A DNA stretch of 64,000 nt from an uncultured bacterium (GTDB taxonomy: Bacteria > Hydrothermota > Tepidihabitantia > B3-TA06 > CAYQJV01), in NCBI GenBank assembly GCA_964417925.1, contig CAYQJV010000001.1, forward strand, positions 22,192 to 86,191. The letters run 5' to 3'. Positions 18,774 through 63,149 of this stretch are shown here, one piece after another. Positions within the stretch are counted from its first letter, which is position 1. Each line of letters opens with the position of its first letter. The notes beneath the pieces are model-generated. The model saw only the letters and a list, made by a program, of their open reading frames with translations. It had not been told where the DNA came from and did no database searches. Made by a program: the position numbers and the translations under genes.

Positions 18774-21308
18774 TCACCTCCTTTCATATATGTTTACAAA
18801 TTTAACAAGCCTTCTTTCCTCTCCTTTCTCCATTTGAATGAAATATACTCCTGCGGCAAGGAAAATTGATTTTACATCTTCCCTATTTTTCAGTTTTCTC
18901 ACAATTCTTCCATTTGACGTATATATCTTAACACAATCATAATATTCCATAGCCTTCCGCAGAACATCATTTATCTTGCCCACGGAACTAAATATTATGC
19001 CTTTCTCTTCATATTGGTATGCAACCTCCTTTATTCCTGTAGAAATGGGTAACCCAAACTTAATTGTTATCAAATATTCTCCATACTCATAAAGGTCTAC
19101 AGAAAACTCTACCCTCTCTCCTTTAGCCAGTGAGCTTTTTGCCTTTACCAAGAATCCCTCAATGGCTTTACCTTCAGAAAAGGGAGGCACATTCTCAAAA
19201 TAAGAGATTGAATCTTTTACAATAACCTTTCCATCCTCACTTTTCAATACACCTAATAATGCATATACCTTATCAGGTGCAGAGTTTTTAATCAATAGAT
19301 TGAGTATCGCTGTTTCCCCGGGATCAAGCAATCCATTTTGATTTCCTCCTTCTAAGGTATCTGCTATTTCATAAGAATAATAGGTTATCTCTCCTTTTAA
19401 AGGAAATTTTATATCTCCGGTCACCACCACAGCATATGGTTGAGGACCAAAAGGAATGTTTTTACCTACTATCTTTACTATCCATGCACCTTCCTCAGGA
19501 ATCTCTATCCATACCAATTCCTCCACGTTGATCTCATCCCTTACCCCACCCTCAACAGAATATCCATTTTCAAAGTTATTACCGTAATAGACCTTTCCCG
19601 AAGGAGAGATAACTTCAAGGTCTAAGTCATTAACGAGCTGTTTTGAGGAAGAAAGTTCTGCGGGATAATCAGTCCAAACAAGTACTATTTTTAAAGGTAA
19701 ACCAGAAGATACTTCCACTGTAAAACTTTTTTCTTCATCGGTCTCTATACCTATGGTATCGTCTATTAAATAAAGTTTCCGCATATCCTCTGGGAAATAG
19801 AGCACGCTGTCAAGACATACCCTACCCCATCCACCTTTATTTGATGGCATAGAATACGAAGATGAAAGATGAACTGTAGAAGCCATTACCATTGCTTTCA
19901 ATAAAGCAGCAGAAGGAATAATCCGTTCTTCCTCATCGGGTACTCCACCTGGATAGTACCCATCTTTTAGATATTGATAAATCAATGCCGTAGCTCCTGC
20001 AACAGCAGGACATGACATACTGGTGCCAGACATTGAGTAATAATTCTCAGGACCTCCACCATAGGCTGAGATCAATACACCAGGAGCAACAACTGTGGGT
20101 TTTATTCTACCGTCATTGGTAGGACCAGGATCTGAAAACCCAGTAACCCTATCCGCACCACCACCATTAAAAGTAGCTCCCACTGTAATAATATCTTTAG
20201 CGGTTCCAGGAGGAGTAACCCTATAATCATCATTTCCTGCAGAAAAAAGAATAAGAAAATCTTTATGATTCCACATAAATTGATCGGTCTGATAACACTC
20301 AATATTGTATCCCCCTTCATATGCATTCCATCCCCAACTGTTGGAACTTAAAATTGCCCTTCCTGCTTCATTTCCTTCATAAGGCATTATATACATGTCA
20401 TTAAGATCATCCGGAGGATAAACACTATAACCTCCTGCACCTATGTCAACAAAATATATTTTTGCATCTTTTGCCATTCCATCATATGGAGCACTACCAT
20501 CTACATATTCATCATTGCCTGCTACAGTACACGCAGTATGCGTTCCATGATAATAGGCACTTGATGCATCTCCAAAGGATGCTAAGGAAGATCCAGGTTT
20601 ATATGCAATTATTTTTCTATGTTCAGGATAATCCCCCCAGTTCTCTATAGGATGTTCAGGATCTCTAAACATATTGTGATCTGTGTATATACCTGAATCA
20701 GAGGTACTTACGATAACCCCTTTACCTGTTATGCCTTTCTCCCATATTCTTCGGTTATCTTCTTCCCAGGTCTGCACCACCCATTGACATCGATTGTTAA
20801 ATAACACATGCTCTCTACATGGTTCAATCCATCTTATCCATTTAATCCTCGCTATCTTGTGTATATCTTCTCCATCTCCCTTAATTACAATAATCTTGTT
20901 CCATTGATTTATCGAAACCCTTAAAATTTCAAAACCTTTCTCTTGAAGAAAAGGAAGCACTTCATCTACCACTGCCTCTTCAAAAAGAAGAACCTTGAAA
21001 CTATCCACTACCGGTTTTATAATCTCGTGGTTATACTTCATTCTGCCTTCATAGGGAACGACCCCTGAAATATCCATATCCTTTAGAATCTCAGAAGTAA
21101 TCTTTCCATATACCAAGAAAGCGTTGTCTGGTATGTATCCTTTTACCTTTAATCCCTTGCTCTCCATTAGATTACGTGTATTTTTAAAAACTCCTTTCAC
21201 CTCAACAATGTAGTAATTTTCTTCATAAGTTATTTCAAATCTTCCAGTTATGGAAAGGTCTCCATTAAGGAGATGGAGAATAGAAAATAAAAAAAAGATG
21301 TTATTCAT
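18774..21308 (-). CDS. S8 subtilisin-like serine protease with T9SS-type C-terminal domain (paralog of the previous gene)
   Basis: Triad motifs VSTSDSGI, HGTHTACTVAG, GTSMSCPAVAG. C-terminus KIYTSNGRIVRKL…AAGVYFIQME…LVKFVNI is CTD-like. Signal peptide. Confidence 0.75.
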   Translation of the reverse strand: MNNIFFLFSILHLLNGDLSITGRFEITYEENYYIVEVKGVFKNTRNLMESKGLKVKGYIPDNAFLVYGKITSEILKDMDISGVVPYEGRMKYNHEIIKPVVDSFKVLLFEEAVVDEVLPFLQEKGFEILRVSINQWNKIIVIKGDGEDIHKIARIKWIRWIEPCREHVLFNNRCQWVVQTWEEDNRRIWEKGITGKGVIVSTSDSGIYTDHNMFRDPEHPIENWGDYPEHRKIIAYKPGSSLASFGDASSAYYHGTHTACTVAGNDEYVDGSAPYDGMAKDAKIYFVDIGAGGYSVYPPDDLNDMYIMPYEGNEAGRAILSSNSWGWNAYEGGYNIECYQTDQFMWNHKDFLILFSAGNDDYRVTPPGTAKDIITVGATFNGGGADRVTGFSDPGPTNDGRIKPTVVAPGVLISAYGGGPENYYSMSGTSMSCPAVAGATALIYQYLKDGYYPGGVPDEEERIIPSAALLKAMVMASTVHLSSSYSMPSNKGGWGRVCLDSVLYFPEDMRKLYLIDDTIGIETDEEKSFTVEVSSGLPLKIVLVWTDYPAELSSSKQLVNDLDLEVISPSGKVYYGNNFENGYSVEGGVRDEINVEELVWIEIPEEGAWIVKIVGKNIPFGPQPYAVVVTGDIKFPLKGEITYYSYEIADTLEGGNQNGLLDPGETAILNLLIKNSAPDKVYALLGVLKSEDGKVIVKDSISYFENVPPFSEGKAIEGFLVKAKSSLAKGERVEFSVDLYEYGEYLITIKFGLPISTGIKEVAYQYEEKGIIFSSVGKINDVLRKAMEYYDCVKIYTSNGRIVRKLKNREDVKSIFLAAGVYFIQMEKGEERRLVKFVNIYERR

Positions 21309-51576: not shown

Positions 51577-51646
51577 TTTTTGTTATATTCTGAAAAGCTT
51601 TCAATTTTTAAGTATAGGTATTTCATAACTTAATTTTTAGAATCTT

Positions 51647-51662
51647 TGGCATGTTTTTCGCT
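51647..51662 (+). promoter_or_regulatory. Predicted sigma-54 promoter (TGGCAT-N5-TCGC; -24 GG / -12 GC)
   Basis: GG and GC are at consensus spacing. The 29-bp block aatctttggcatgtttttcgctatataat is identical to the block at 63289-63317. Confidence 0.6.
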
Positions 51663-51711
51663 ATATAATATTGGGTGTAGAGAAAGGGGGTGAGATGATA
51701 AGAAAAAAACC

Positions 51712-51739
51712 TTGACAAAAGAATAAAAAAATATAAAAT
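51712..51739 (+). promoter_or_regulatory. Sigma-70-like promoter (TTGACA-N16-TAAAAT) inside the sigma-54 5'UTR, upstream of A1
   Basis: TTGACA at 51712-17, TATAAAAT at 51732-39. SD AGGAAG. The same element recurs at 54809-36 before A2. Confidence 0.45.
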
Positions 51740-51752
51740 TAGGAAGTGTAAA

Positions 51753-52163
51753 ATGAGAGGAGTAATAAAAATATTGGTTTTAGGTATGGTGGTGATGGTT
51801 ATAGCCCAGCCTTCCTATGATGAGAGGTGGGAAGGAGAGGCAGAAGGCACAGTAGTGGTGGATGGAGATACAATTGAGCCATGGGCTCACTGGACTGCCT
51901 GGGTTGAATATGATTATGTGCCTGGTAAGGATACTATTTGGGGAGTATGGCAGGATACGGAGACAGATGCATATGGAAATATATATGGTCATAGAAATGA
52001 GTCTGATGGTTCCGTTTCTGGAACATGGGATTGTGCTAATTATAATGTCTCTGGAGGATGGTCCGGAACCGCCACTGGTGGCGTAGGTAGTAAAGGCTCA
52101 GGAAAGTGGTGGATAAATGGGGAAGATAGTACAGGATGGTGGGAAGGTGAAAGAAAGGAGTAA
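51753..52163 (+). CDS. Small secreted Trp/Asp/Gly-rich protein A1 (136 aa, unknown family)
   Basis: Signal peptide MRGVIKILVLGMVVMVIAQP. Mature part is rich in W, D, G, E (WEGEAEG, GTWDC, WWINGEDSTGWWEGE). First 64 residues are identical to A2. Confidence 0.7.
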   Translation: MRGVIKILVLGMVVMVIAQPSYDERWEGEAEGTVVVDGDTIEPWAHWTAWVEYDYVPGKDTIWGVWQDTETDAYGNIYGHRNESDGSVSGTWDCANYNVSGGWSGTATGGVGSKGSGKWWINGEDSTGWWEGERKE

Positions 52164-52168
52164 AAATA

Positions 52169-52206
52169 AAGAGGGGGAGAGTTAAAAGGCTCTCTCCCTC
52201 TTTTTA
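52169..52206 (+). terminator. Intrinsic terminator/attenuator between A1 and B1
   Basis: AAGAGGGGGAGAG-ttaaaagg-CTCTCTCCCTCTT (12-13 bp stem, one G·U) followed by TTTTT. Confidence 0.6.
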
Positions 52207-52242
52207 AGGAGGGAATATGATGATGTTTTTACTTTTTTTTCA

Positions 52243-54795
52243 ATGATTATAAAAGATGATTTCCTTATATCTAAGGATAATCCAGTGCCATCTTCAAAAT
52301 CAAAGGTCTATGGGAAAGGTAGCAAAAAGGGAATCACAATTGTATGGCAAGATGAAAGGCTTGGAGGTGCATTTATAAAAGGAGATTATGCAGAAATTTT
52401 TTTCCAGAGTTTTGATTCCTTGAGGATGAAAATAGGAGGTAATAGAAGACTCGACATTACCCCTGAATGGAGGGTAAGAGTAGTGGGTGGTATAGGATAC
52501 TTTGATAAGGATGTTTCATTTCTCTGGAATACGGGAGATGGATTGTATTTTTGTAAGTATTCTAATAAAGGGGAACTTAAAATAAAAAGAAAAAGGATAA
52601 TCAGTGATGAAGAGTTTTATGGAAACTTGCGTCCTGATAAACCTGTTGGTTATTCAACTAATGAGATAAATAAAGGATTGGTATGCTTTACTGTGAGTTG
52701 TAAAAATGAAGGAGATAGAGTTTATGCTCTCTGTATCAATTCATGTGGTGAAGTTGTTCTTCCCATATTTACTGTAGATAGTATGCTTCCCGGAACCCCT
52801 TATTTCTGGAATGCAAAAGGTGCTATTTCAGATAGGGCATTTGGAGTTATTTATTGGGAAGGTGGGGTTGAGTATCGGATTAAGATATATACTCTTGATG
52901 GAAAATTTATTGATAAAATAATTTTGGGAAAGGGAGAGGGAACTCCCTATATTGAGATGGTAATGGATACCATTTATGTTGTGTGGTGTGAGTATCCTGA
53001 GATGAGCGTGTGGCTTGAGAAGTATGTTTTGAGAGAAGGTGGGGTTTCAAGGGAGTTTAAGGAGATGTTAAGCAAGGATGCATTGTGGTCTTCAAACATG
53101 CAGGTTGCTTTTGAATGGTGGGATAGGGATGAAGGACCTGTGGAAATTCCTTCTCTGGTTGTGATGACCGCATGGCATGACTGGGATGAAAAGAAGATAA
53201 AGTGCAGGGTATATTCAGGAGCAACTGGTGGTGAAATTGCAGGTGGTTCTTTTTCTCCCTCCGTTTCTGATACTGCAACTCCTGACTTTTCCCTTTTCTA
53301 TGGTGCAGGTAGGTTTCACATAGCATATGTTGACGACAGTAACCGGGTGATTGATGTTGCAACATATCTTACTCCTGATACCGAGCTTGTGTTTGCAGGT
53401 CCTCAGGTTGTAAGTGATGACAGCTGTGGTGAAGGATGGAGTGATGCAAGGCTTGCGGTTAACAGTAATGGAGATTTTGCAATTCTTTACTGGTCACCGG
53501 AAGGAAAGGCATTTGTAAAGTTTTTTGACAGAGATGGAAATCAGATATCCAAAGAGATAGATATTTCTACTCTCTTCACAACAAGATGTCCTTCAATGAT
53601 AGCTCCAATGATAGCAATGGATAATGAAAGAAATTTAATGGTAATAGCTTTGGAGGATTGGCTGGAGACTCTTCCGCCTATAAGGATAGAGTTTTATGGA
53701 TTGATTGTTAAGCCTTCAGGAGAAATAAAGAGGTTCAATATAGGGAGGTATCCTGAGGAGCTATACATAGGCGATAGTTATCTCACCTGTAATTCAAAAG
53801 GGGATTTCCTTTTCCTGTGGGATGAATTTCCATTTGGTTCTGAGGAAGAGAGAAATGTTATAAAGGGCAGGTTTTTTGATGCAAATGGAAGGCCAAAGAC
53901 AGATGTTTTTACTCTCAAGTTTCCTCTTGGCCCTATACACCCCACTGGAGCTGATGTTTTTGAGAATGGAGGGGCGGTTGTGGCGGCTGCAATGTCAAAT
54001 GCTGCACGCTCATGGGCAGTTGTGATAGACAGCACCGGTAATCCTTTGACAGAGTTAATAGAGTTTATACGCACCTATCCCGTTATTGCCTGTGATGGGA
54101 GGAATAGATGGGTGATGGCGGGATTAAATGTAAAGCCAAACTACATGGTTTTTGATAGAAAGGGCAATGTGATAAAGGATTTGCAGGTGATAGATGCATA
54201 TACATTTCCTTGGCCTTCTTTCTTTGGTCCTCGCCAGTTGTGGTGTGATATGGATACATCAGGGAGGTTTATAATCTACTGGACAGATTTTACTGAGGAT
54301 GCAAATCCTGATGTAAGGGCACAGATATTTTCAAGGGATGGTGACCCGGTATCAGAGATATTTGAGGTTCATAATCCTGATGCATTTCCTTATGAGTATC
54401 AGCTTTCTACCTGGCAGGGACTTGGAGTGACATCGGATAGGATTTATTTTATGTGGCTTGACAATCGCAGGATAAAGGGTTGGGACATATATGCAAAGGT
54501 AACGGACTGGGAGTATCCAACAGGAATTAAAGAAAAGAGAGAAAGTAAAAACTTAGATATAGAGTATTTGGGACCCCATATTTTAATAAGGTTTTCCCTT
54601 TCTTTTCCTCAGAATTTATCTATCAAACTCTACGATGTTTCAGGAAGAGTGGTAAAAAGCATCTTTTTAAAGGCAAAGAAAGGAGAAAATACAATTGAGA
54701 TAGAAAAAAATTTCCCTCCTGGAGTGTATTTTTTGAGAATAGAAGGGAAGGAAAAAGAATATAGCACTAAGATTCTCATTGTAAAAGGGAAATGA
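52243..54795 (+). CDS. Large beta-propeller-repeat protein B1 with T9SS C-terminal sorting domain. The 5' end is frame-disrupted relative to its SD-positioned ATG at 52217
   Basis: C-terminus LSIKLYDVSGRVVKSIFL…PGVYFLRIEG…KILIVKGK matches the Por_Secre_tail pattern. Internal repeats GDF-hhh-W…(I/V)xGRFFDxNGxP. SD AAGGAGGG at 52207-14 serves the ATG at 52217, whose frame stops at 52244 unless the T8 run (52233-40) gains one T. Confidence 0.7.
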   Translation: MIIKDDFLISKDNPVPSSKSKVYGKGSKKGITIVWQDERLGGAFIKGDYAEIFFQSFDSLRMKIGGNRRLDITPEWRVRVVGGIGYFDKDVSFLWNTGDGLYFCKYSNKGELKIKRKRIISDEEFYGNLRPDKPVGYSTNEINKGLVCFTVSCKNEGDRVYALCINSCGEVVLPIFTVDSMLPGTPYFWNAKGAISDRAFGVIYWEGGVEYRIKIYTLDGKFIDKIILGKGEGTPYIEMVMDTIYVVWCEYPEMSVWLEKYVLREGGVSREFKEMLSKDALWSSNMQVAFEWWDRDEGPVEIPSLVVMTAWHDWDEKKIKCRVYSGATGGEIAGGSFSPSVSDTATPDFSLFYGAGRFHIAYVDDSNRVIDVATYLTPDTELVFAGPQVVSDDSCGEGWSDARLAVNSNGDFAILYWSPEGKAFVKFFDRDGNQISKEIDISTLFTTRCPSMIAPMIAMDNERNLMVIALEDWLETLPPIRIEFYGLIVKPSGEIKRFNIGRYPEELYIGDSYLTCNSKGDFLFLWDEFPFGSEEERNVIKGRFFDANGRPKTDVFTLKFPLGPIHPTGADVFENGGAVVAAAMSNAARSWAVVIDSTGNPLTELIEFIRTYPVIACDGRNRWVMAGLNVKPNYMVFDRKGNVIKDLQVIDAYTFPWPSFFGPRQLWCDMDTSGRFIIYWTDFTEDANPDVRAQIFSRDGDPVSEIFEVHNPDAFPYEYQLSTWQGLGVTSDRIYFMWLDNRRIKGWDIYAKVTDWEYPTGIKEKRESKNLDIEYLGPHILIRFSLSFPQNLSIKLYDVSGRVVKSIFLKAKKGENTIEIEKNFPPGVYFLRIEGKEKEYSTKILIVKGK

Positions 54796-54808
54796 AAAGG
54801 AAGAAAAA

Positions 54809-54836
54809 TTGACAAAAAATAAAAAAAATATAAAAT
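54809..54836 (+). promoter_or_regulatory. Sigma-70-like promoter (TTGACA-N16-TAAAAT) for A2-B2. No UAS or sigma-54 element in this copy
   Basis: TTGACA at 54809-14, TATAAAAT at 54829-36. Duplicate of the 51712-39 element. Confidence 0.45.
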
Positions 54837-54840
54837 AGGG

Positions 54841-55254
54841 GTGGTGAGAAGAGTAATAAAAATATTGGTTTTAGGTATGGTGGTAATGGTTATAGCCCAG
54901 CCTTCCTATGATGAGAGGTGGGAAGGAGAGGCAGAAGGCACAGTAGTGGTGGATGGAGATACAATTGAGCCATGGGCTCACTGGACTGCCTGGGTTGAAT
55001 ATGATTATGTGCCTGGTAAGGATACTATCTGGGGTATATGGTGGGATGATGAGGGAGATACAGGGAGGATATATGGACACCGAGATGAAGCAAACGACTC
55101 TGTTTTTGGAACATGGGATTGTATCAACTGTGATGTATCTGGGGAATGGGAGGGAAAGGCAAATTATCCTACGACAGATAATGCACAAGGAGAGTGGTGG
55201 GTAACAAGTGGTGGAACTGGGGATGGCACATGGAGTGGGCATAGAGAAGAATAA
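54841..55254 (+). CDS. Small secreted Trp-rich protein A2 (paralog of A1; GTG start, or GTG at 54844)
   Basis: Identical signal peptide and N-terminal half to A1. C-terminal half diverged (IWWDDEGDTGRIYGHRDE…GEWWVTSGGTGDGTWSGH). Confidence 0.7.
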   Translation: MVRRVIKILVLGMVVMVIAQPSYDERWEGEAEGTVVVDGDTIEPWAHWTAWVEYDYVPGKDTIWGIWWDDEGDTGRIYGHRDEANDSVFGTWDCINCDVSGEWEGKANYPTTDNAQGEWWVTSGGTGDGTWSGHREE

Positions 55255-55260
55255 AAACAT

Positions 55261-55282
55261 GGGAGCCGGAAATCCGGCTCCC
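55261..55282 (+). other. GC-rich hairpin without U-tract between A2 and B2 (stability/processing element rather than terminator)
   Basis: GGGAGCCGG-aaat-CCGGCTCCC followed by ATAAAAAGGAGG (SD of B2). Confidence 0.45.
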
Positions 55283-55300
55283 ATAAAAAGGAGGTAAAAA

Positions 55301-57898
55301 ATGATATTTTTATTGTTTTTAATAGTTATAAAAGATGATTTCCTGGTATCTAAGGATAATCCATGCCATTCTTTTAAGTGTCAGGTTTTTGGAAAAGGAG
55401 AGGTGGATGGTTATACCATTGTATGGAGAGATGGGAGAACCGGAACAATTAATTTACCGAGTTTTTATGAGGAAATTTTCTTTCAGTGTTTTGATTCAAA
55501 TAGAGTTAAAATTGGGGATAACACAAGACTTGGGACATCTTCTGAGTGGAAGACAAGATATCTCGGGGGCATAGGATACTTCAAAGATGCAGTATCATTT
55601 ATATGGAATGAAGGATCCGGGATGGGGCAGGCAGATATTCAGGATACCATGGGAACCATTTACTTCTGTAAGTATGATAACAATAGGAATATGGTGATAA
55701 AACCTAAAAAACTCATTGATCATAATGATATTCGTATTTATCCATTTTATCCAGTACATTATTCTACCAATGGATGTAACAGAGGACTGGTATGTTTTGG
55801 GGAGATTGGAGAAAAGAAAACAAACTTTTATGCCTTGGTTATTGATTCTTGTGGAGAAATTCTTCTTCCTTTATTTGTTGTGGATACGGTTTCTGGGTCC
55901 CATCCAATTGTGAGGGGAGCAATATCAGACAGGTATTTTGCAATATTTTATTCCACCACTTTCAATCCTGCTATTTCCAGGATGAAGGTCTATTCAATTG
56001 ATGGAAAGGAAATTGATAGGATAGTTTTTGGAGAAAGCTTCAAGGCTTCTGCTATTAAAGTATTTCTTGACACAATTTATGTTGTTTGGAGTCCGTATTT
56101 TTATGATAGGGGTGAAGAGCTATGGTTGGAGAAGTATGTGGTTAAGGATGATGGTGTTGAGAGGGTATTTCAGGAGATTTTGATGAATAGATATCCAGCA
56201 AATATGCAGGTTGCTTTTGGATGGTGGGATAGGGATGAAGGACCTGTGGAGGTTCCTTCTCTGGTTGTGATGATCGCGTGGCATGACTGGGATGAGAAGA
56301 AGATAAAGTGCAGGGTGTATTCAGGAGCAACTGGTGGTGAAATTGCAGGTGGTTCTTTTTCTCCCTCTGTTTCTGATACTGCAACTCCTGATTTTTCTCT
56401 TTTCTATGGTGCAGGAAGGTTTCACATAGCATATGTTGATGACAGTAACCGGGTGATTGATGTTGCAACATATCTTACTCCTGATACCGAGCTTGTGTTT
56501 GCAGGTCCTCAGGTTGTAAGTGATGATACCTGTGGCAGGGGATGGAGTGATGCAAGGCTTGCAGTAAACAGCAATGGAGACTTTGCAATTTTTTACTGGT
56601 GCTATTATTATGACAGTCTGCGTGCCTTTGTGAAATTTTTTGATCAAAATGGAGATGAACTTTCAAAAGAGATTGAGGTTCCTCTTCGTTTCACAAGGTT
56701 TACCAATGTAACGACGGCTATGGATGATAGGAGAAATTTGATGATAATACATGCTCCTGAGGTTCTGGAAAAAAATGAGAATGGTCGTCCCACAAGGATA
56801 AGGTTTTATGGGGTTATTGTTAATCCCTCTGGAGAGGTCAAAAAGTTTACCATAGGGGAGTATCCACCTGATGAGTTTTACATGTCCTGGCATAGTTATG
56901 TTGCATGTAATTCTAAAGGGGATTTTCTTATACTCTGGTGTCATTTTCCTGGAGGGGATGGTCCTGAAAATGTTATAAGGGGCAGGTTTTTTGATGCAAA
57001 TGGAAGACCGAAAACAGATGTTTTTACTCTCAAGTTTCCCATAGGTCCCATAATGCCCACTGGGGCTGTTGTTTTTGAGGATGGAGGGGCGGTTGTAGGA
57101 GCTGCACTGTCAAATGCTGCACGCTCATGGGCGGTTGTGATAGACAGCATCGGTAATCCTTTAACAGAATTAATAGAGTTTATACGCACTTATCCTGTTA
57201 TTGCCTGTGATGGGAGGGATAGATGGGTGATGGCAGGATTAGATGTAAAGCCAAACTGCATGGTTTTTGATAGAAAAGGAAATGTGATAAGGGATTTGCA
57301 GGTGATAGATGCATATACATTTGCCTGGCCATCCCCAATTTTCCCTCAGCAGTTATGGTGTGATATGGATACATCAGGGAGGTTTATAATTTACTGGACA
57401 GATTTTACCGAGGATGCAAATCCGGATGTCAGGGCACAGATATTTTCAAGGGATGGTGACCCGGTATCAGAGATATTTGAGGTTCATAATCCTGATGCAT
57501 TTCCTTATGAGTATCAGCTTTCTACCTGGCAGGGACTTGGAGTGACATCGGATAGGATTTATTTTATGTGGCTTGACAATCGCAGGATAAAGGGCTGGGA
57601 CATATATGCAAAGGTAACGGACTGGGAGTATCCAACAGGAATTAAAGAAAAGAGAGAAAGTAAAAACTTAGATATAGAGTATTTGGGACCCCATATTTTA
57701 ATAAGGTTTTCCCTTTCTTTTCCTCAGAATTTATCTATCAAACTCTACGATGTTTCAGGAAGAGTGGTAAAAAGCATCTTTTTAAAGGCAAGGGAAGGAG
57801 AAAACAGGGTTGAAATAAAAAAGGATTTTCCCCAGGGAGTGTATTTTTTGAGGATAGAAAAAGGGAAAGTTTTACACAAAAAAATAATAATATTGTAA
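55301..57898 (+). CDS. Large beta-propeller-repeat protein B2 with T9SS C-terminal sorting domain (paralog of B1)
   Basis: SD AAGGAGGT 6 nt before the ATG. Short hydrophobic N-terminus MIFLLFLIVI. C-terminal 310 aa are almost identical to B1, including the CTD. Confidence 0.75.
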   Translation: MIFLLFLIVIKDDFLVSKDNPCHSFKCQVFGKGEVDGYTIVWRDGRTGTINLPSFYEEIFFQCFDSNRVKIGDNTRLGTSSEWKTRYLGGIGYFKDAVSFIWNEGSGMGQADIQDTMGTIYFCKYDNNRNMVIKPKKLIDHNDIRIYPFYPVHYSTNGCNRGLVCFGEIGEKKTNFYALVIDSCGEILLPLFVVDTVSGSHPIVRGAISDRYFAIFYSTTFNPAISRMKVYSIDGKEIDRIVFGESFKASAIKVFLDTIYVVWSPYFYDRGEELWLEKYVVKDDGVERVFQEILMNRYPANMQVAFGWWDRDEGPVEVPSLVVMIAWHDWDEKKIKCRVYSGATGGEIAGGSFSPSVSDTATPDFSLFYGAGRFHIAYVDDSNRVIDVATYLTPDTELVFAGPQVVSDDTCGRGWSDARLAVNSNGDFAIFYWCYYYDSLRAFVKFFDQNGDELSKEIEVPLRFTRFTNVTTAMDDRRNLMIIHAPEVLEKNENGRPTRIRFYGVIVNPSGEVKKFTIGEYPPDEFYMSWHSYVACNSKGDFLILWCHFPGGDGPENVIRGRFFDANGRPKTDVFTLKFPIGPIMPTGAVVFEDGGAVVGAALSNAARSWAVVIDSIGNPLTELIEFIRTYPVIACDGRDRWVMAGLDVKPNCMVFDRKGNVIRDLQVIDAYTFAWPSPIFPQQLWCDMDTSGRFIIYWTDFTEDANPDVRAQIFSRDGDPVSEIFEVHNPDAFPYEYQLSTWQGLGVTSDRIYFMWLDNRRIKGWDIYAKVTDWEYPTGIKEKRESKNLDIEYLGPHILIRFSLSFPQNLSIKLYDVSGRVVKSIFLKAREGENRVEIKKDFPQGVYFLRIEKGKVLHKKIIIL

Positions 57899-57968
57899 GT
57901 GAAATGTTGAAAAAGATATAAATATACAGTGACATAGTAAGAAAGTTCAAAAATTCTTCACACTCAAT

Positions 57969-58014: not shown

Positions 58015-58332
58015 ATGGTTTCATTACCGAAAAGTACTGTATACGGGGATGGTGTTAAAATCAACTCTTTACATGCAATACAGCTTCTTGACATGGAAAT
58101 TACATCTGTTAAAAGAAAAAGACGTGTAAAAAGTTCTTTGAGCACAATGTTCTTTATCAACCTCCTCTACAAAAAAGAATGCAATAAAATTACTGTCCAG
58201 ATGGATCCTGTAATAACTCACAAGAGTTATGACTACATAAATCATTGCTATAGAAACAGCAATAATAAAAAAGATAGTTTCCAAAAATTAAAGAAAATTT
58301 ACAACGAAGTAATAAACTTAACTAACAGGTGA
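58015..58332 (+). CDS. Small hypothetical protein (105 aa) translationally coupled to the kinase-EBP gene
   Basis: Strong SD then ATG at 58015 (the ORF track's 57988 start lacks an SD). Stop TGA overlaps the downstream GTG start (GTGA at 58329-32). No recognisable motif. Confidence 0.45.
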   Translation: MVSLPKSTVYGDGVKINSLHAIQLLDMEITSVKRKRRVKSSLSTMFFINLLYKKECNKITVQMDPVITHKSYDYINHCYRNSNNKKDSFQKLKKIYNEVINLTNR

Positions 58333-61300
58333 GCAGGTATAAAATAGTAGAAAAGATAGGGGAGGGAAATTACACCGTAGTATATAGAGCATATGACATC
58401 CTTTCTCAGAAGGAAGTGGCATTAAAAACTCTAAAGAACAAAGGAATTGATCCCGTGATTCTTAAAAGAGAGTATGTATTTTTAAAAAAATGCTCCCATC
58501 CTTATATAGTAAAGGTATATGAAGCAGGGTACTTAAAAGACACTCCTTATTTTACAATGGAGTACATAAAAGGAGAGGATATAAAGCAGTATCTAAAAAA
58601 GAAACGAAACGAGCAAAATTTCTGGACAATTTTTTCCACGCTCTTTTTAAAAATAGTTGCAGGAGTATCCCACTTTCACTTTAAAGGAATAATACATGGC
58701 GATCTCAAACCAAACAATATTCTTGTAGATGAACAGGACAATGTGAAAATAATAGATTTTGGTTTTGCCTTATTAAAAGGAGAAAAACCAGAGGGAACTA
58801 CAGTAGTATACACTGCTCCTGAAATCCTTAAAGGAAACCTTGATTATAGAGCAGACATTTATGCTATAGGGATGATAATGTACGAAATTATAGAAGGTAA
58901 AGATTTATTTACTCAACTCACCCCTGTAAATATTGTAAAAGAAAAGTTAAAATTTATTCCTTCTTTTTCAAAACCTATACCTTCTGAACTTAAAAATCTT
59001 GTGAAAAATATGCTTTCTCCAGAACCTTTCTTCAGACCGGATGCAAAAGAAATATACAGCACACTTTCAAAACTATCTGCAGAAAAAATAGAGATACAAT
59101 CCCAAGAGGAAATGACCACAATGCCAGTGGTAGGAAGAGAAGAACTAATAGATACTGCTTTAAAAGAGGGTAACAAAATAATATTCTATGGAGACCATGG
59201 TTATGGAAAATCAACTTTATTAAAAGAAATATCTTTTAGGGCTTGGCTTAAGAAAAAAAGGGTATTTGAAATCAATAAAGATAAAGAATACCTGCTTCTT
59301 GAATATTTAAAAACTCACTATAAAGTTAAAGCAACATCCAGGGAACATCTGTTTGCAGATATTGTATCCTCCCTTGAGAAAGAGTACGACATCTTCATAT
59401 TTGATGACCTACATCTATACTCTGAAGATGATATTGAGTTTGCAAGGTATCTTTATCTTTCCACAAAGAAGAATGTAATATTCTCAGCATTACCTTTAGA
59501 GTCCTTAAAAAAGAAGTTTGAAGAACCAGGCAGAATAGCGATAAAAAATATTCCTTCATTATCACCTAAAGAAATAAAAACTCTTGTATATATTCTTTTC
59601 CCAACCCTATCTCAGAAAGAGGAACTTACAGAAGAGCTCTATAGAATAACAAAAGGAATACCTCTGCTTTTAAAAAGCATTATTGAGATATTTTTAAAAG
59701 AAAAAATCCTTAAAAAAGAAGAGGATAAATTTATTTTTAATAGAGAGAAAATCAAAGGGTTAGAACTACCGAAAACTGTAAAAGAATTTGTAAAGAATTC
59801 ATTCAAAGAATTAAATGAAGATGAAAAAAACTTCTTACTTGCTGTCCACCTATTAAAAGACTTTGCATCCTTATCCAACATCTATCAAATGGTACAACTA
59901 AAAGAGGATAAGATATATTCCATAGCAGAAAGTTTAAAAATAAAAGAACTTATAAAAATAATCCAAAAAAACAACACAATTATCTACACACTTTCAACTG
60001 GAATTTATATCCCCTTTATAAAAAAACTAAAAAGTTATAAAGACCTTTTGGAAAAAAGTATAAAAATAATTGAAAAGGAAAACAGCACCAAAAAAATATA
60101 TCTTCTTGCAGAATACAACCATATTCTCGGTAAAAAAGAAAAGGCAGTTGATTATCTCTACACTGCAGTAAATACGGCAAGAAAAACCTCCCTCCTTTGT
60201 GAAGCAAAGAAATTTATAGAAATACTCATCCAGAACTATCCTATAGAAGACATACCAAACCCTTGCAAATTTTGTATTGTAGCCGGAGACATCTATCTAC
60301 TGCTTCATGAATTAAAAAAGGCTCAGACATTTTTCTCAATATCATTTTCCTTCTGCCCTCAAGAAAGAAAAAGTGATATTCATCACAGGATTGCTCAAAC
60401 AATGTTTTATCAGGGAAATATCAAAGATGCAAAACTGGAAACAATAAAGGGATTAAAATATGCAAAAGATAAACATGAATTATTGAATTTTCTATCATGG
60501 CTTTACATCTTTGATGGTGAAAAGCAAAGAGCAGAAAGAATCTTAAACCATGTAATAGCACATACAAATAACAAAGAGATACTTTCAAATGCATACTATA
60601 ACCTTGCAATACTTTACAAAAAATATAACCAATTTATTAAATGTGCTACGGTGCTTGGGAAAAGCATAAAATATCTAAAGGAAAAAGACATCTATGGTTA
60701 TGCGTTAAGACTTGAAATTGCTTGTGAAATGCTACTTCAGAAGGGATTTTTTAGAAATGCAGAAAGAATACTTTTAAAAATAAAAAATATTTGGGGAAAA
60801 ATTAAAAACTTAAATAAATATACATCAACTTTAATAAACATGGGAAGAATAAAAAGATTTGAAAATCCCAAAAAAGCACTTGAATACTTCCATCAAGCAG
60901 AAATCATGAGTCTCAAAATAAAAGATTATGAACTTTTTGCAAGTGCCCTTCTTAACTCTGCATTCTTATTTGAAACATACGGAAGAACTGAACAGGCTCT
61001 TGAAAGCATAGGTAAACTTCTTACATACGAACAAAAAATTTCAGAAGAGAGATTTTGTAAAGGAGTTTTTTATTATACAAAGTATCTACTTTTAACGAAT
61101 CAGATAGAAAAAGCAGAAGAATTTCTTAAAACCATCAAAAGGAAAGACTCTTCTTGGTGCCTTTTATCACAGACATTGGTTCTTTTTGAAAAAAATGATG
61201 ATAAAAGATTCAGAAAGGAGATGGTAGAAATACTATTAAGGGAAAATACCGAAGAAGAAGTCTCTGAAGCTCTTAATATTCTTTTTGAATATCATTACAA

Positions 61301-63149
61301 TAAAAATGATTTGGAAAGATGTAAAACCATCCTTGAAAGGATTAAAAAGATATCATATGCGAAAAAAAATCCTTTTAAAGAAGTTGAGATAATGTTAAAA
61401 ACAGCAATCCTTTTAAAAGATAAAAAACTACTTGAAGAAACAATAAAAAGAGCAGAAAGAATTCACTATTTCAATGCAAAACCCCTTGCCCTATCTATAC
61501 TTGGAAAGATATATTATGAGAAAGGAGATTACTTGAAGGCATATAAACATCTAAAAGAAGCAAGGGAAAATTTTGAGAGAATAGGAATGATAAATACCGC
61601 AGAAAAGATAAAAAAATATGAAGAAAAAGCAAAGGAAAAAAGTATAGAAATCCAAGTACCGGAAAGGAAATACTTAGATACACTTGAAAGAATAAGCGCT
61701 GTGGTAAAGGACTATTTTGGAAAAGATGAGTTTTTCCTTGAACTTTTAAACATTCTGATAGAAGCAACCTCTGCAGAAAGAGGAATGGTCATGATAGGGG
61801 AGAACCAAGAAAATCTATACTGCGTGGGAACTACAAATATAGATGAAGTTACTTATGTCGATGCAACCGCATTTTCAAAGACTGTATTAAAACATGTAAG
61901 AGAAGGTAAAAGAGGGATATATACAGAAGATGCAACAAAAGATCCCAGGTTTAAAGATGCAGAAAGTGTCAAACTAAAAGAGATAAAGTCAATTCTATGC
62001 GTTCCATTAATGGCAAAAGATGAAGTTATAGGAGTTCTCTATCTTGATAGTTCACTCAAAAAAGGACTCTTTACAGAAGAAACTCTAAAATTCATGGAGT
62101 CTGTATCAAATATAATAGGCACATTTGTGTATACCTCTTATACCGCAGAGAAAAAGTTTAAAGAACTTGAAAGGATAAAACTAAAAACTCAAGAAATAGT
62201 AATAGGAAGATCAAGAAAAATAAAAAGGATATTCAAGGAAATCCAACAAATTGCTCAAACAGATTCAAACATCCTCCTTATAGGAGAAACAGGAACAGGT
62301 AAAGGGGTAATTGCACGGTTAATTCATGAAAAGAGCAGGCGGAGCGAATATCTCTTTCAGTATATAAACTGTGGAGCAATTCCCTATGAACTATTTGAAG
62401 CAGAACTATTTGGATACAAAAAAGGAGCCTTCACAGGTGCAAGAGAAACAAGAAAGGGCTTACTTGAAGAGGCTCATAAAGGAACCGTTTTTTTGGATGA
62501 AATAGCAAATATTCCAATATCTGTCCAGGCAAAGTTGCTGGATGTAATAGAGCGAAAAAAAATAAGAAGGCTTGGAGAAAATATAGAAAGGGATATTGAT
62601 GTAAGGTTTATATTTGCAACAAACAGAGATTTAGAACAAGAAATAGAAAAGGAAAAGTTCAGAAATGACCTGTATTACCGAATTTCAACAACTGTTATTG
62701 AAATTCCACCACTAAGAGAAAGAAAAGAAGATATTCCTATATTTGTAGATTTCTTCATAGATAAATTTTCAAAAGAACTTAACAAAAATATAAAGGGAGT
62801 TTCACAAGAAGCCATGGAAATACTATTAAAATACCACTGGCCAGGAAATATAAGAGAGCTTTCCAATGTAATTGAACGGGCTGTAATTATGGCAGATAAA
62901 GAAACCATAGGCAAAAATCACATAGATAGAGGAATAATTGAATCAGTAATACCACCAGCCCCTCTAAAAATTGAAACAGAAAAAGTAAAGAAAGAGATGA
63001 TAATAAAGGCACTTCAACTCCACAAAGGTAACATCAAAAAAACAGCCCAATACCTGCACATAACCCGTCAACACCTCTCCAGGCTTTTAAAAAGATACAA
63101 CATTGACCCAGCCCAGTATAAACACCCCCAAAACCCCCAAAAAGTGTAA
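58329..63149 (+). CDS. Multidomain one-component regulator: Ser/Thr protein kinase + P-loop NTPase + TPR array + GAF + sigma-54 activator AAA+ + Fis-type HTH (1606 aa)
   Basis: Kinase motifs VALKTL, HGDLKPNN (58695-718), DFG, APE. P-loop GDHGYGKST (59190-216). Long TPR-like helical repeats. GAF-like block LLNILIEATSAERGMVMIG…VLYLDS. Sigma-54 AAA+ Walker A GETGTGKG (62283-306), GAFTGA (62424-41), Walker B VFLDEI, WPGNIRELSNVIERA. C-terminal HTH KTAQYLHITRQHLSRLLKRY. Confidence 0.8.
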   Translation: MSRYKIVEKIGEGNYTVVYRAYDILSQKEVALKTLKNKGIDPVILKREYVFLKKCSHPYIVKVYEAGYLKDTPYFTMEYIKGEDIKQYLKKKRNEQNFWTIFSTLFLKIVAGVSHFHFKGIIHGDLKPNNILVDEQDNVKIIDFGFALLKGEKPEGTTVVYTAPEILKGNLDYRADIYAIGMIMYEIIEGKDLFTQLTPVNIVKEKLKFIPSFSKPIPSELKNLVKNMLSPEPFFRPDAKEIYSTLSKLSAEKIEIQSQEEMTTMPVVGREELIDTALKEGNKIIFYGDHGYGKSTLLKEISFRAWLKKKRVFEINKDKEYLLLEYLKTHYKVKATSREHLFADIVSSLEKEYDIFIFDDLHLYSEDDIEFARYLYLSTKKNVIFSALPLESLKKKFEEPGRIAIKNIPSLSPKEIKTLVYILFPTLSQKEELTEELYRITKGIPLLLKSIIEIFLKEKILKKEEDKFIFNREKIKGLELPKTVKEFVKNSFKELNEDEKNFLLAVHLLKDFASLSNIYQMVQLKEDKIYSIAESLKIKELIKIIQKNNTIIYTLSTGIYIPFIKKLKSYKDLLEKSIKIIEKENSTKKIYLLAEYNHILGKKEKAVDYLYTAVNTARKTSLLCEAKKFIEILIQNYPIEDIPNPCKFCIVAGDIYLLLHELKKAQTFFSISFSFCPQERKSDIHHRIAQTMFYQGNIKDAKLETIKGLKYAKDKHELLNFLSWLYIFDGEKQRAERILNHVIAHTNNKEILSNAYYNLAILYKKYNQFIKCATVLGKSIKYLKEKDIYGYALRLEIACEMLLQKGFFRNAERILLKIKNIWGKIKNLNKYTSTLINMGRIKRFENPKKALEYFHQAEIMSLKIKDYELFASALLNSAFLFETYGRTEQALESIGKLLTYEQKISEERFCKGVFYYTKYLLLTNQIEKAEEFLKTIKRKDSSWCLLSQTLVLFEKNDDKRFRKEMVEILLRENTEEEVSEALNILFEYHYNKNDLERCKTILERIKKISYAKKNPFKEVEIMLKTAILLKDKKLLEETIKRAERIHYFNAKPLALSILGKIYYEKGDYLKAYKHLKEARENFERIGMINTAEKIKKYEEKAKEKSIEIQVPERKYLDTLERISAVVKDYFGKDEFFLELLNILIEATSAERGMVMIGENQENLYCVGTTNIDEVTYVDATAFSKTVLKHVREGKRGIYTEDATKDPRFKDAESVKLKEIKSILCVPLMAKDEVIGVLYLDSSLKKGLFTEETLKFMESVSNIIGTFVYTSYTAEKKFKELERIKLKTQEIVIGRSRKIKRIFKEIQQIAQTDSNILLIGETGTGKGVIARLIHEKSRRSEYLFQYINCGAIPYELFEAELFGYKKGAFTGARETRKGLLEEAHKGTVFLDEIANIPISVQAKLLDVIERKKIRRLGENIERDIDVRFIFATNRDLEQEIEKEKFRNDLYYRISTTVIEIPPLRERKEDIPIFVDFFIDKFSKELNKNIKGVSQEAMEILLKYHWPGNIRELSNVIERAVIMADKETIGKNHIDRGIIESVIPPAPLKIETEKVKKEMIIKALQLHKGNIKKTAQYLHITRQHLSRLLKRYNIDPAQYKHPQNPQKV

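Follow-up and report, generated by a model that had tools for sequence, protein, structure and literature searches.

A frame break at a T8 homopolymer that detaches the predicted export leader of a T9SS-tagged protein gene in an uncultured bacterium, most likely through a recent slipped-strand indel

Phase-variable surface-protein genes carry repeats within their signal-peptide codons, as seen in the CTCTT repeats of Neisseria opa and in the CT and homopolymer tracts of Helicobacter pylori outer-membrane-protein genes. Homopolymer lesions can also be partly rescued by unprogrammed transcriptional slippage, as in disrupted open reading frames (ORFs) with A/T runs (Baranov et al. 2005, PMC1088944), and the poly(A) tracts of insect endosymbionts (e.g., Blochmannia vafer, PMC3017870) and tssM of Citrobacter rodentium (PMC4256274) belong to the same class. 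In Shigella mxiE (T9) and Thermus dnaX (A9), transcriptional slippage is programmed (PMC1088944). A run of 9 nucleotides (nt) is the usual threshold for transcriptional slippage and runs of 8 are productive in some bacteria; an eight-A run in a frameshifted apoB allele gives about a tenth of full-length product, and 8-A runs appear productive in some bacterial insertion-sequence (IS) elements (Baranov et al. 2005, PMC1088944). Here we describe the gene B1 in a 64-kb stretch of contig CAYQJV010000001.1 (the whole of which is hereafter called the window), in which a short leader and a long body lie in different frames on either side of a run of eight T's (T8). We propose that the most likely cause of this break is an indel by strand slippage, recent and specific to the lineage, and that B1 is consequently export-OFF or leaky. 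It should be noted that we read the break as an ordinary homopolymer frameshift (or assembly error) and not as programmed recoding. A sequence-only reading of the same DNA had offered a sequencing error, a phase-variable gene or a programmed frameshift as explanations of the site, the elements of which are as follows.

Positions 52206 to 52213, forward strand: Shine-Dalgarno (SD) sequence AAGGAGGG, a 7-nt match (AAGGAGG) to the anti-SD consensus.
Positions 52217 to 52246, forward strand: detached leader mini-ORF, translated as MMMFLLFFQ and a stop, with homology to the leaders that are in frame in the B1 orthologues, B2 and B3.
Positions 52233 to 52240, forward strand: T8 homopolymer, site of the frame-breaking length change.
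Positions 52243 to 54795, forward strand: B1 body ORF of 850 amino acids (aa), a Met followed by the mature-domain motif IIKDDF..., from the ORF list and domain searches.

A triplet of ATG codons opens the leader frame (ATGATGATG at 52217-25, read directly from the sequence), with spacings of 4, 7 and 10 nt from the GGAGG of the SD, and this SD-to-ATG layout is the same in all B-gene copies. The sequence-only reading was right that a strong SD serves ATG 52217, and its placement of the SD at 52207-14 was off by one, a trivial difference. The leader frame ends at TGA 52244-46, which overlaps the B1 ATG as ATGA (52243-46), and the offset between ATG 52217 and ATG 52243 is 26 nt, so the B1 ORF is in the -1 frame. 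Within the window the run is flanked as GTTTTTAC (T)n nCAATGATTATAAAAG. Because the B1 frame holds no ATG, GTG or TTG between its upstream stop (52183-85) and 52243, ATG 52243 is the only possible start of the B1 ORF; a non-ATG start in this frame downstream of the SD was considered and ruled out, none being present. There is no SD match in the 22 nt preceding ATG 52243, and an SD core of at least 4 nt, often the full AAGGAGG(T), stands at about half of the ORF starts in the window. These results agree with the leader peptide, stop, T8 coordinates and SD-less -1-frame body previously read from the letters. The NCBI record of B1 is an 850-aa protein (P0001) with its start called at ATG 52243. 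On the minus strand the site has no ORF, and promoter-like matches there are weak (18 vs. 12.4 +/- 4.1 expected by chance).

Addition of one T (T9) yields MMMFLLFFSMIIKDDF..., colinear with MIFLLFLIVIKDDF of the tandem paralogue B2, as had been proposed; the earlier proposal overlooked that removal of two T's (T6) restores the B1 frame equally well. The leader is therefore in frame with the body at T9 or T6 and out of frame at T8 or T7. In the repaired frame the run is read as CTT TTT TTT TCA (Leu/Phe/Phe/Ser), and only once the frame is repaired does B1 show the junction SMIIK seen in P0003 (MLIFLVSMIIKNDF), a third family member.

Residues 780-846 of B1 form a T9SS (type IX secretion system) type-A C-terminal sorting domain (Por_Secre_tail in Pfam, E = 2.8e-10; TIGR04183 in NCBIfam, E = 3.5e-13; both above cut-offs). 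Pfam and NCBIfam give no domain beyond this one in B1 or B2, and a PDB sequence search with the B family profile returned no match. Among 5.8 billion protein clusters, the close B family consists of B1, B2 and P0003 only, the last being an 868-aa protein from another NCBI contig, and the cluster of P0001 has a single member. A profile search of 1.84 billion representatives identified 765 distant relatives at E<=1e-3, mostly 840-960 aa in length and built of repeats (up to 13 matches per protein; unit ...GNFVVVW.D.R.G..DIY(A/G)QR(Y/F)...G.P.G.NF(R/K)VN.D...), most of which end in the same T9SS sorting domain. Judging from these matches, B is a member of a large uncharacterised family, with P0004-P0152 among the relatives.

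A T9SS sorting domain presupposes Sec export. In the distant homologues inspected, a signal peptide of 15-28 aa stands directly before a conserved [IV][IV]K[DN]DF[LV]VN motif (for example, MVLKLGLLCVLAGSLTAA followed by IIKDDFLVND, and MRFGFLFIPFLLNAG followed by VIKDDFLVND). Because the signal peptide directly precedes the motif in these proteins, IIKDDF would mark the mature N-terminus of B1 and the detached segment occupies the signal-peptide position, where it is in frame only after frame repair. On this comparison the detached segment would be the B1 export leader, and the mini-ORF MMMFLLFFQ a remnant of the B1 signal-peptide codons. The idea that the upstream hydrophobic segment belongs to B1 thus finds support in the paralogues, in the orthologues and in this family-wide position.

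The state of the leader in related copies was read from B2, which serves as the in-frame comparator within the window, and from orthologue contigs. The latter were reached by going from homologues of A1, the small-protein gene upstream of B1, to their cluster members and then to short contigs from hydrothermal-vent and Guaymas-type sediment metagenomes.

Positions 55301 to 57898, forward strand: B2, tandem paralogue in which SD, ATG, leader and body form an intact unit with a single ORF (MIFLLFLIVIKDDF...).

An in-frame TAA at 55295-97 lies upstream of B2, hence the B2 leader cannot extend further. Contigs L005, L006 and L009, from three different assemblies, carry the B1 orthologue (~83-85% nt identity to window positions 51645-53304; 81% aa identity) and read ...AAGGAGGAAATT ATG ATA GAA ATA TTT TTG TTT TTG ATG CCC TTA AAG GAT GAT..., that is, MIEIFLFLMPLKDDFLISKDNPVPS. 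All three have one open frame from the SD-proximal ATG (MIEIFLFLMPLKDDF...; leader ATGATAGAAATATTTTTGTTTTTGATGCCCTTAAAGGATGAT) and contain T5 runs only, so that the orthologue check suggested earlier for conservation of the homopolymer came out negative, T8 being absent. The B2 orthologues in L001 and L002 (MIFLLFLTVIKDDF), the B3 orthologues in L004 and L007 (MLIFLISVVIKNDF) and the leader of P0003 are also in frame. L001, the one contig that the metagenome scan yielded, covers the 3' end of B1, A2 and B2, with the B1 start outside. In an alignment of eight sequences, window B1 is longer by 2 nt than 7/7 other copies, and the surplus falls exactly within the T-rich stretch (35 nt before the Lys codon in the window B1 leader vs. 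33 in the orthologue); a length change in the T-run is thus what separates leader from body, as the sequence-only reading had it.

Since all related copies are in frame without a T8 run, the ancestral B1 was, by this comparison, one uninterrupted ORF, and the break is confined to this genome. The dN/dS (nonsynonymous to synonymous substitution ratio) of B1 against its L005 orthologue is 0.27 and that of B2 is 0.35, and the alternative frames of B1 contain 68 and 89 stops. The break appears to be young, because the gene was under purifying selection until recently and its 850-codon ORF is otherwise intact. Exact DNA and protein-guided searches of the genome collection found neither this genome nor that of P0003, and exact-product look-ups for B1, P0001, P0003, A1, PdxJ and P0154 gave none on record.

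These comparisons also bear on whether ATG 52243 might be a genuine and sufficient start, the short leader being dispensable in the clade, the 850-aa protein functional and the break neutral. Such a start agrees with the NCBI call; P0003 also has a Met at this position (SMIIK), the clade leaders are too short or atypical for confident Sec signals, and the ATGA overlap permits coupling. However, B2, its orthologues and the B3 orthologues lack a Met there (V-IK) and must start at the SD-proximal ATG, and despite many substitutions the leaders of three paralogue groups in two lineages have kept an open reading frame in phase with the body and a strong hydrophobicity. The sorting domain, with its established requirement for Sec export, and the missing SD at ATG 52243 also speak against a genuine start, which we consider very improbable.

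The layout of the T-run could alternatively be taken to mean that full-length B1 is normally made by programmed recoding, through either a -1 ribosomal frameshift on 52234-40 or programmed transcriptional slippage. U UUU UUU at 52234-40 is an X XXY YYZ heptamer in 0 frame, in register with ATG 52217; a -1 shift on it gives exactly MMMFLLFFS-MIIKDDF, the 0-frame stop comes two codons past it, and 8-nt runs are, as mentioned, productive slippage sites in some bacteria. An SD stimulates -1 frameshifting when it lies ~10-14 nt upstream of the shift site, as in dnaX, whereas the only SD here (GGAGG, 52208-12) is 21 nt upstream of the heptamer. Folds of 57-100 nt downstream of the T-run, where a stimulatory structure was sought, are no better than shuffles (z = -0.49 to -0.75), and Rfam over 51600-52700 returned sub-threshold chance matches only (best 24 bits vs. 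a gathering score of 50) and no frameshift element. U_UUU_UUU is much less shift-prone than A_AAA_AAG in Escherichia coli and a poor bacterial shift site (Atkins et al., PMC5009743). The 0-frame product would be a useless 9-mer, and the B1 orthologues, B2, B3 and their orthologues all lack the heptamer and its two-frame layout, the break being conserved in 0/7 related copies (5 assemblies). On account of the missing structure, the distant SD, the lack of an Rfam element, the weak heptamer and the non-conservation of the break, programmed -1 frameshifting and programmed transcriptional slippage are rejected as largely refuted, and the programmed frameshift of the sequence-only reading strikes us as scarcely credible. 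Low-level, unprogrammed slippage on U8 would still be expected.

A different possibility is that the organism has T9 (or T6) and an intact B1 from ATG 52217, and that the T8 reflects either a homopolymer miscalled by one base or a consensus that mixes co-existing strains. Such an artefact would fit the fact that one added T gives a protein colinear with all relatives, as well as the otherwise perfect ORF and normal dN/dS of B1. A true T9 would also be the longest homopolymer of the window, where miscalls concentrate, and the origin of all relatives in vent or sediment metagenomes makes it evident that this contig, too, was assembled from a metagenome. Against this stand the internal controls of the window, which contains 86 A/T runs of at least 7 bases (15 A8/T8 runs and 71 of 7, in 64 kb at 35.7% GC), 79 of them in called genes. 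A frame break occurs only at the B1 run; none of the 78 other coding runs, including 11 of 8 bases, breaks an ORF. In the subtilase gene (844 aa, minus strand, 18774-21308), a T8 at 21289-96 lies in the signal-peptide codons and is in frame, the gene starting ATG AAT AAC ATC TTT TTT TTA (MNNIFFLFS). The housekeeping genes tested (DnaE, SecA, PheS, PheT, PBP1, Ddl and MutL-like) are all full length against Pfam models. No homopolymer of at least 9 bases occurs in the 64-kb window, a pattern that fits the common selection of genomes against A/T runs of at least 9 (Baranov et al. 2005, PMC1088944) and by which a true T9 would itself be atypical.

The assembly looks good at homopolymers. These controls argue against an error-prone assembly, although one isolated miscall or a strain-chimeric consensus is possible. 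The site also lies outside any repeat-identical block, and mis-assembly by repeat collapse was ruled out as unlikely, the site falling in a block with 47-69% identity between the tandem units. The sequencing error suggested by the earlier reading is thus possible, but given the internal controls it is the less likely option, and we regard an artefact of either kind as unlikely while giving it appreciable weight. As a separate observation, the subtilase T8 represents another potential slippage hotspot like the B1 run.

The T-tract might also be an evolved contingency switch, with B1 export ON at T9 or T6 and OFF at T8 or T7, in a variable, gene-converting family of secreted proteins. The tract does lie in the 5' coding (leader) region of a T9SS-tagged secreted protein from a three-paralogue family, and T8/T9 runs are intrinsically hypermutable (PMC1088944). 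Comparison of the A1-B1 and A2-B2 units (51650-54840 vs. 54740-57960) reveals a mosaic in which DNA blocks of 96-100% identity (51837-51936, 53183-53482 and 53853-54652) alternate with blocks of 47-69%; juxtaposed blocks of 96-100% and 50-60% are typical of gene conversion, and the mosaic suggests that conversion may operate in this secreted-protein family. Other lesions in start regions point in the same direction. At 54826-54846, A2 lacks 6 nt of SD-ATG spacing kept in all six other A-gene starts (consensus AGGAGGTGTAAAATGAGAGGA vs. AGGGGTG------GTGAGAAGA), so that its start codon is GTG and its SD is degraded; in the array of this genome, this is a further lesion of a start region. In L001 (JGI Ga0190286_1010541), at 523-565, an A2-like gene has lost one G in its signal-peptide codons (ATACT-GTTTTGG vs. 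ATACTGGTTTTGG in five other copies) and reads MRGVIKILFWIRW followed by a stop, a second leader-region frame break in the locus family, which lies outside any homopolymer and could be a low-coverage error.

On the other side, neither the B1 orthologues (T5+T5) nor B2, B3 and their orthologues possess the tract, and the L001 lesion is outside a repeat tract. T8 runs are common by composition, with the 15 counted above, and gene 5' ends are enriched in long runs: those of at least 7 bases in the first 90 nt of genes number 12/79 vs. ~6% expected (~2.4-fold), because of Lys and Phe codons. The B1 tract, which is neither conserved nor compositionally unusual, looks like a compositional by-product rather than a selected switch. 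It is intrinsically mutable and reversion is plausible. The phase-variable gene of the sequence-only reading is nevertheless unsupported, no positive evidence having been obtained, and evolved phase variation is in our view improbable. If it were true, against these expectations, the T-tract would be an ON/OFF export switch in a rapidly recombining T9SS-secreted family of an uncultured hydrothermal-sediment bacterium. This would combine contingency-locus phase variation with A-B gene conversion in a free-living lineage, e.g., to evade phages or predators recognising the surface protein, and the lesions of the L001 A2-like gene and of window A2 would belong to the same expression-shuffling behaviour.

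We therefore favour, with modest confidence, a real, unprogrammed homopolymer indel in this lineage, and given the window controls an artefact is less likely than this. Under the favoured explanation, the ancestral B1 would have been a continuous unit of promoter, A1, hairpin, SD, ATG, short hydrophobic export leader and a mature domain running from IIKDDF to the T9SS sorting domain. An unprogrammed slipped-strand event would then have altered the length of the T-run, the simplest path being from T9 to T8 and the alternative from T6 to T8, so that leader and body no longer share a frame. Ribosomes loading at the SD would make MMMFLLFFQ and terminate at TGA 52244-46, and a fraction may reinitiate at the overlapping ATG 52243 (ATGA) to give a leaderless and hence non-exported B1. 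Termination-reinitiation at ATGA overlaps is a common coupling mechanism in bacteria. A minority of full-length pre-B1 (MMMFLLFFSMIIK...) may arise by unprogrammed slippage on U8, either of RNA polymerase (U9 transcripts) or of the ribosome (-1). Export of B1 would thus be OFF or leaky, while B2 and B3 would stay ON. What the sequences show is the anatomy of the locus, its ancestral in-frame state, a break that relatives do not conserve and a lack of recoding signals; the biological reality of the T8 and the occurrence of reinitiation and slippage are what we infer in this scheme.

Several points weigh against this explanation. The intact ORF and normal dN/dS fit an artefact or a reversible lesion equally well. 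A consensus error hiding a true T9 is possible, this strain being known from one sequence, although we judge it clearly the less probable case. The leaders of the B clade consist of just 8-10 hydrophobic residues and lack both a basic n-region and an AXA-type site, and what the loss of the leader would do is itself a matter of reasoning because these leaders are atypically short for Sec signals. Likewise, the suggested reinitiation at ATGA and the suggested slippage draw on general knowledge of such events. Short leaders are found in all B-clade members (window 55301-55330; L004-L007 and L009; P0003) as opposed to 15-28 aa in the distant homologues.

For annotation, these results mean that the deposited 850-aa B1 starts at an SD-less internal Met without the predicted export leader, and we would like to emphasize that this protein needs a flag for a frameshift or a possible mis-assembly and should not be treated as the native product. 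Biologically, the locus would add to the cases in which AT-rich genomes have natural frameshift hotspots in the A/T homopolymers of their hydrophobic leader codons. Heterogeneity in tract length, if present, would suggest that an uncultured lineage from the environment uses phase-variable secretion.

Upstream of the B1 leader, the unit comprises three further features.

Positions 51712 to 51739, forward strand: promoter-like site TTGACA-16-TAAAAT, with 11/12 consensus matches, upstream of A1.
Positions 51753 to 52163, forward strand: A1, upstream partner of B1, an ORF for a small protein of 136 aa that has a canonical signal peptide (MRGVIKILVLGMVVMVIAQP...).
Positions 52170 to 52205, forward strand: 14-bp GC-rich hairpin (52170-52201) and U-tract (52202-05), between the A1 stop and the B1 SD.

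The promoter-like site is presumed to be the promoter of the A1-B1 unit; an identical site precedes A2 at 54809-36, and the hexamers are invariant in 7/7 aligned A-upstream regions (5 assemblies). A1, the stop codon of which is at 52161-63, has no Pfam or NCBIfam match, and its homologues are invariably located directly upstream of a B gene. The region 52170-52260 folds at -28 kcal/mol (z = -3.2), and in every unit a perfect GC-rich hairpin lies between the A stop and the B SD (window 52170-52201 and 55259-55284; L004 ~968-988; L005 ~693-722). The arms differ by unit, being AGAGGGGGAGAG/CTCTCTCCCTCT for B1, GGGAGCCGG/CCGGCTCCC for B2 and AGAGGGGGG/CCCCCCTCT for B3, i.e., the structure of the A-B hairpin is conserved and its sequence is not. 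It is possible that this hairpin is an attenuator, a terminator or an element of mRNA stability or processing that sets the A:B ratio. In L005 685-735, and also in L006 and L009, the A stop is in the frame of the B ORF and this frame is open across the hairpin (a stop followed by NRRGELKGSPLFKEEIMIEIF...), which is probably a coincidence.

In related strains the 3' end of another B gene precedes the A gene (L004 1-349 and L005 3-44), and their A-B tandem arrays are longer or differently ordered; A1 of the window is preceded by pdxJ-side sequence. Directly downstream of the window array, at 58329-63149, is a 1606-aa ORF which, from its translation alone, looks like a Ser/Thr protein kinase at the N-terminus fused to a long stretch of helical repeats and, at the C-terminus, to a sigma-54-type AAA+ activator carrying a DNA-binding tail.

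Set beside the known systems, the B1 site resembles -1 frameshifting of the E. coli dnaX and IS3 type in having an X XXY YYZ heptamer in 0 frame and a nearby 0-frame stop. Unlike those sites, it has no SD at ~10-14 nt and no downstream hairpin or pseudoknot, its heptamer is of a weak type and not conserved, and its 9-aa 0-frame product has no plausible use. As in the slippage of mxiE and Thermus dnaX, the run lies between two overlapping frames, and one nt inserted in the mRNA fuses a short upstream and a long downstream ORF; those sites, however, are conserved and 9 nt long, whereas the B1 run has 8 nt and is confined to a single genome. The likeness to Neisseria opa and the H. pylori genes is that a tract in the leader codons sets the frame of an exported protein, in a multi-copy, recombining family of secreted or surface proteins. 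The B1 tract differs from these in that it is not present in paralogues or orthologues and is no longer than composition predicts, and its host is an uncultured vent/sediment bacterium rather than a host-adapted pathogen.

In comparison with the slippage-rescued lesions, B1 is known here from sequence alone, its break is at the extreme 5' end, between leader and mature domain, its downstream ORF could also be made alone via ATGA, and a run of 8 is at the lower edge of documented slippage. Common to both are a gene that is intact but for the gain or loss of one base in an A/T run, relatives that do not share the break, and a run long enough (8 here) to let RNA polymerase put a small share of the transcripts back in frame.

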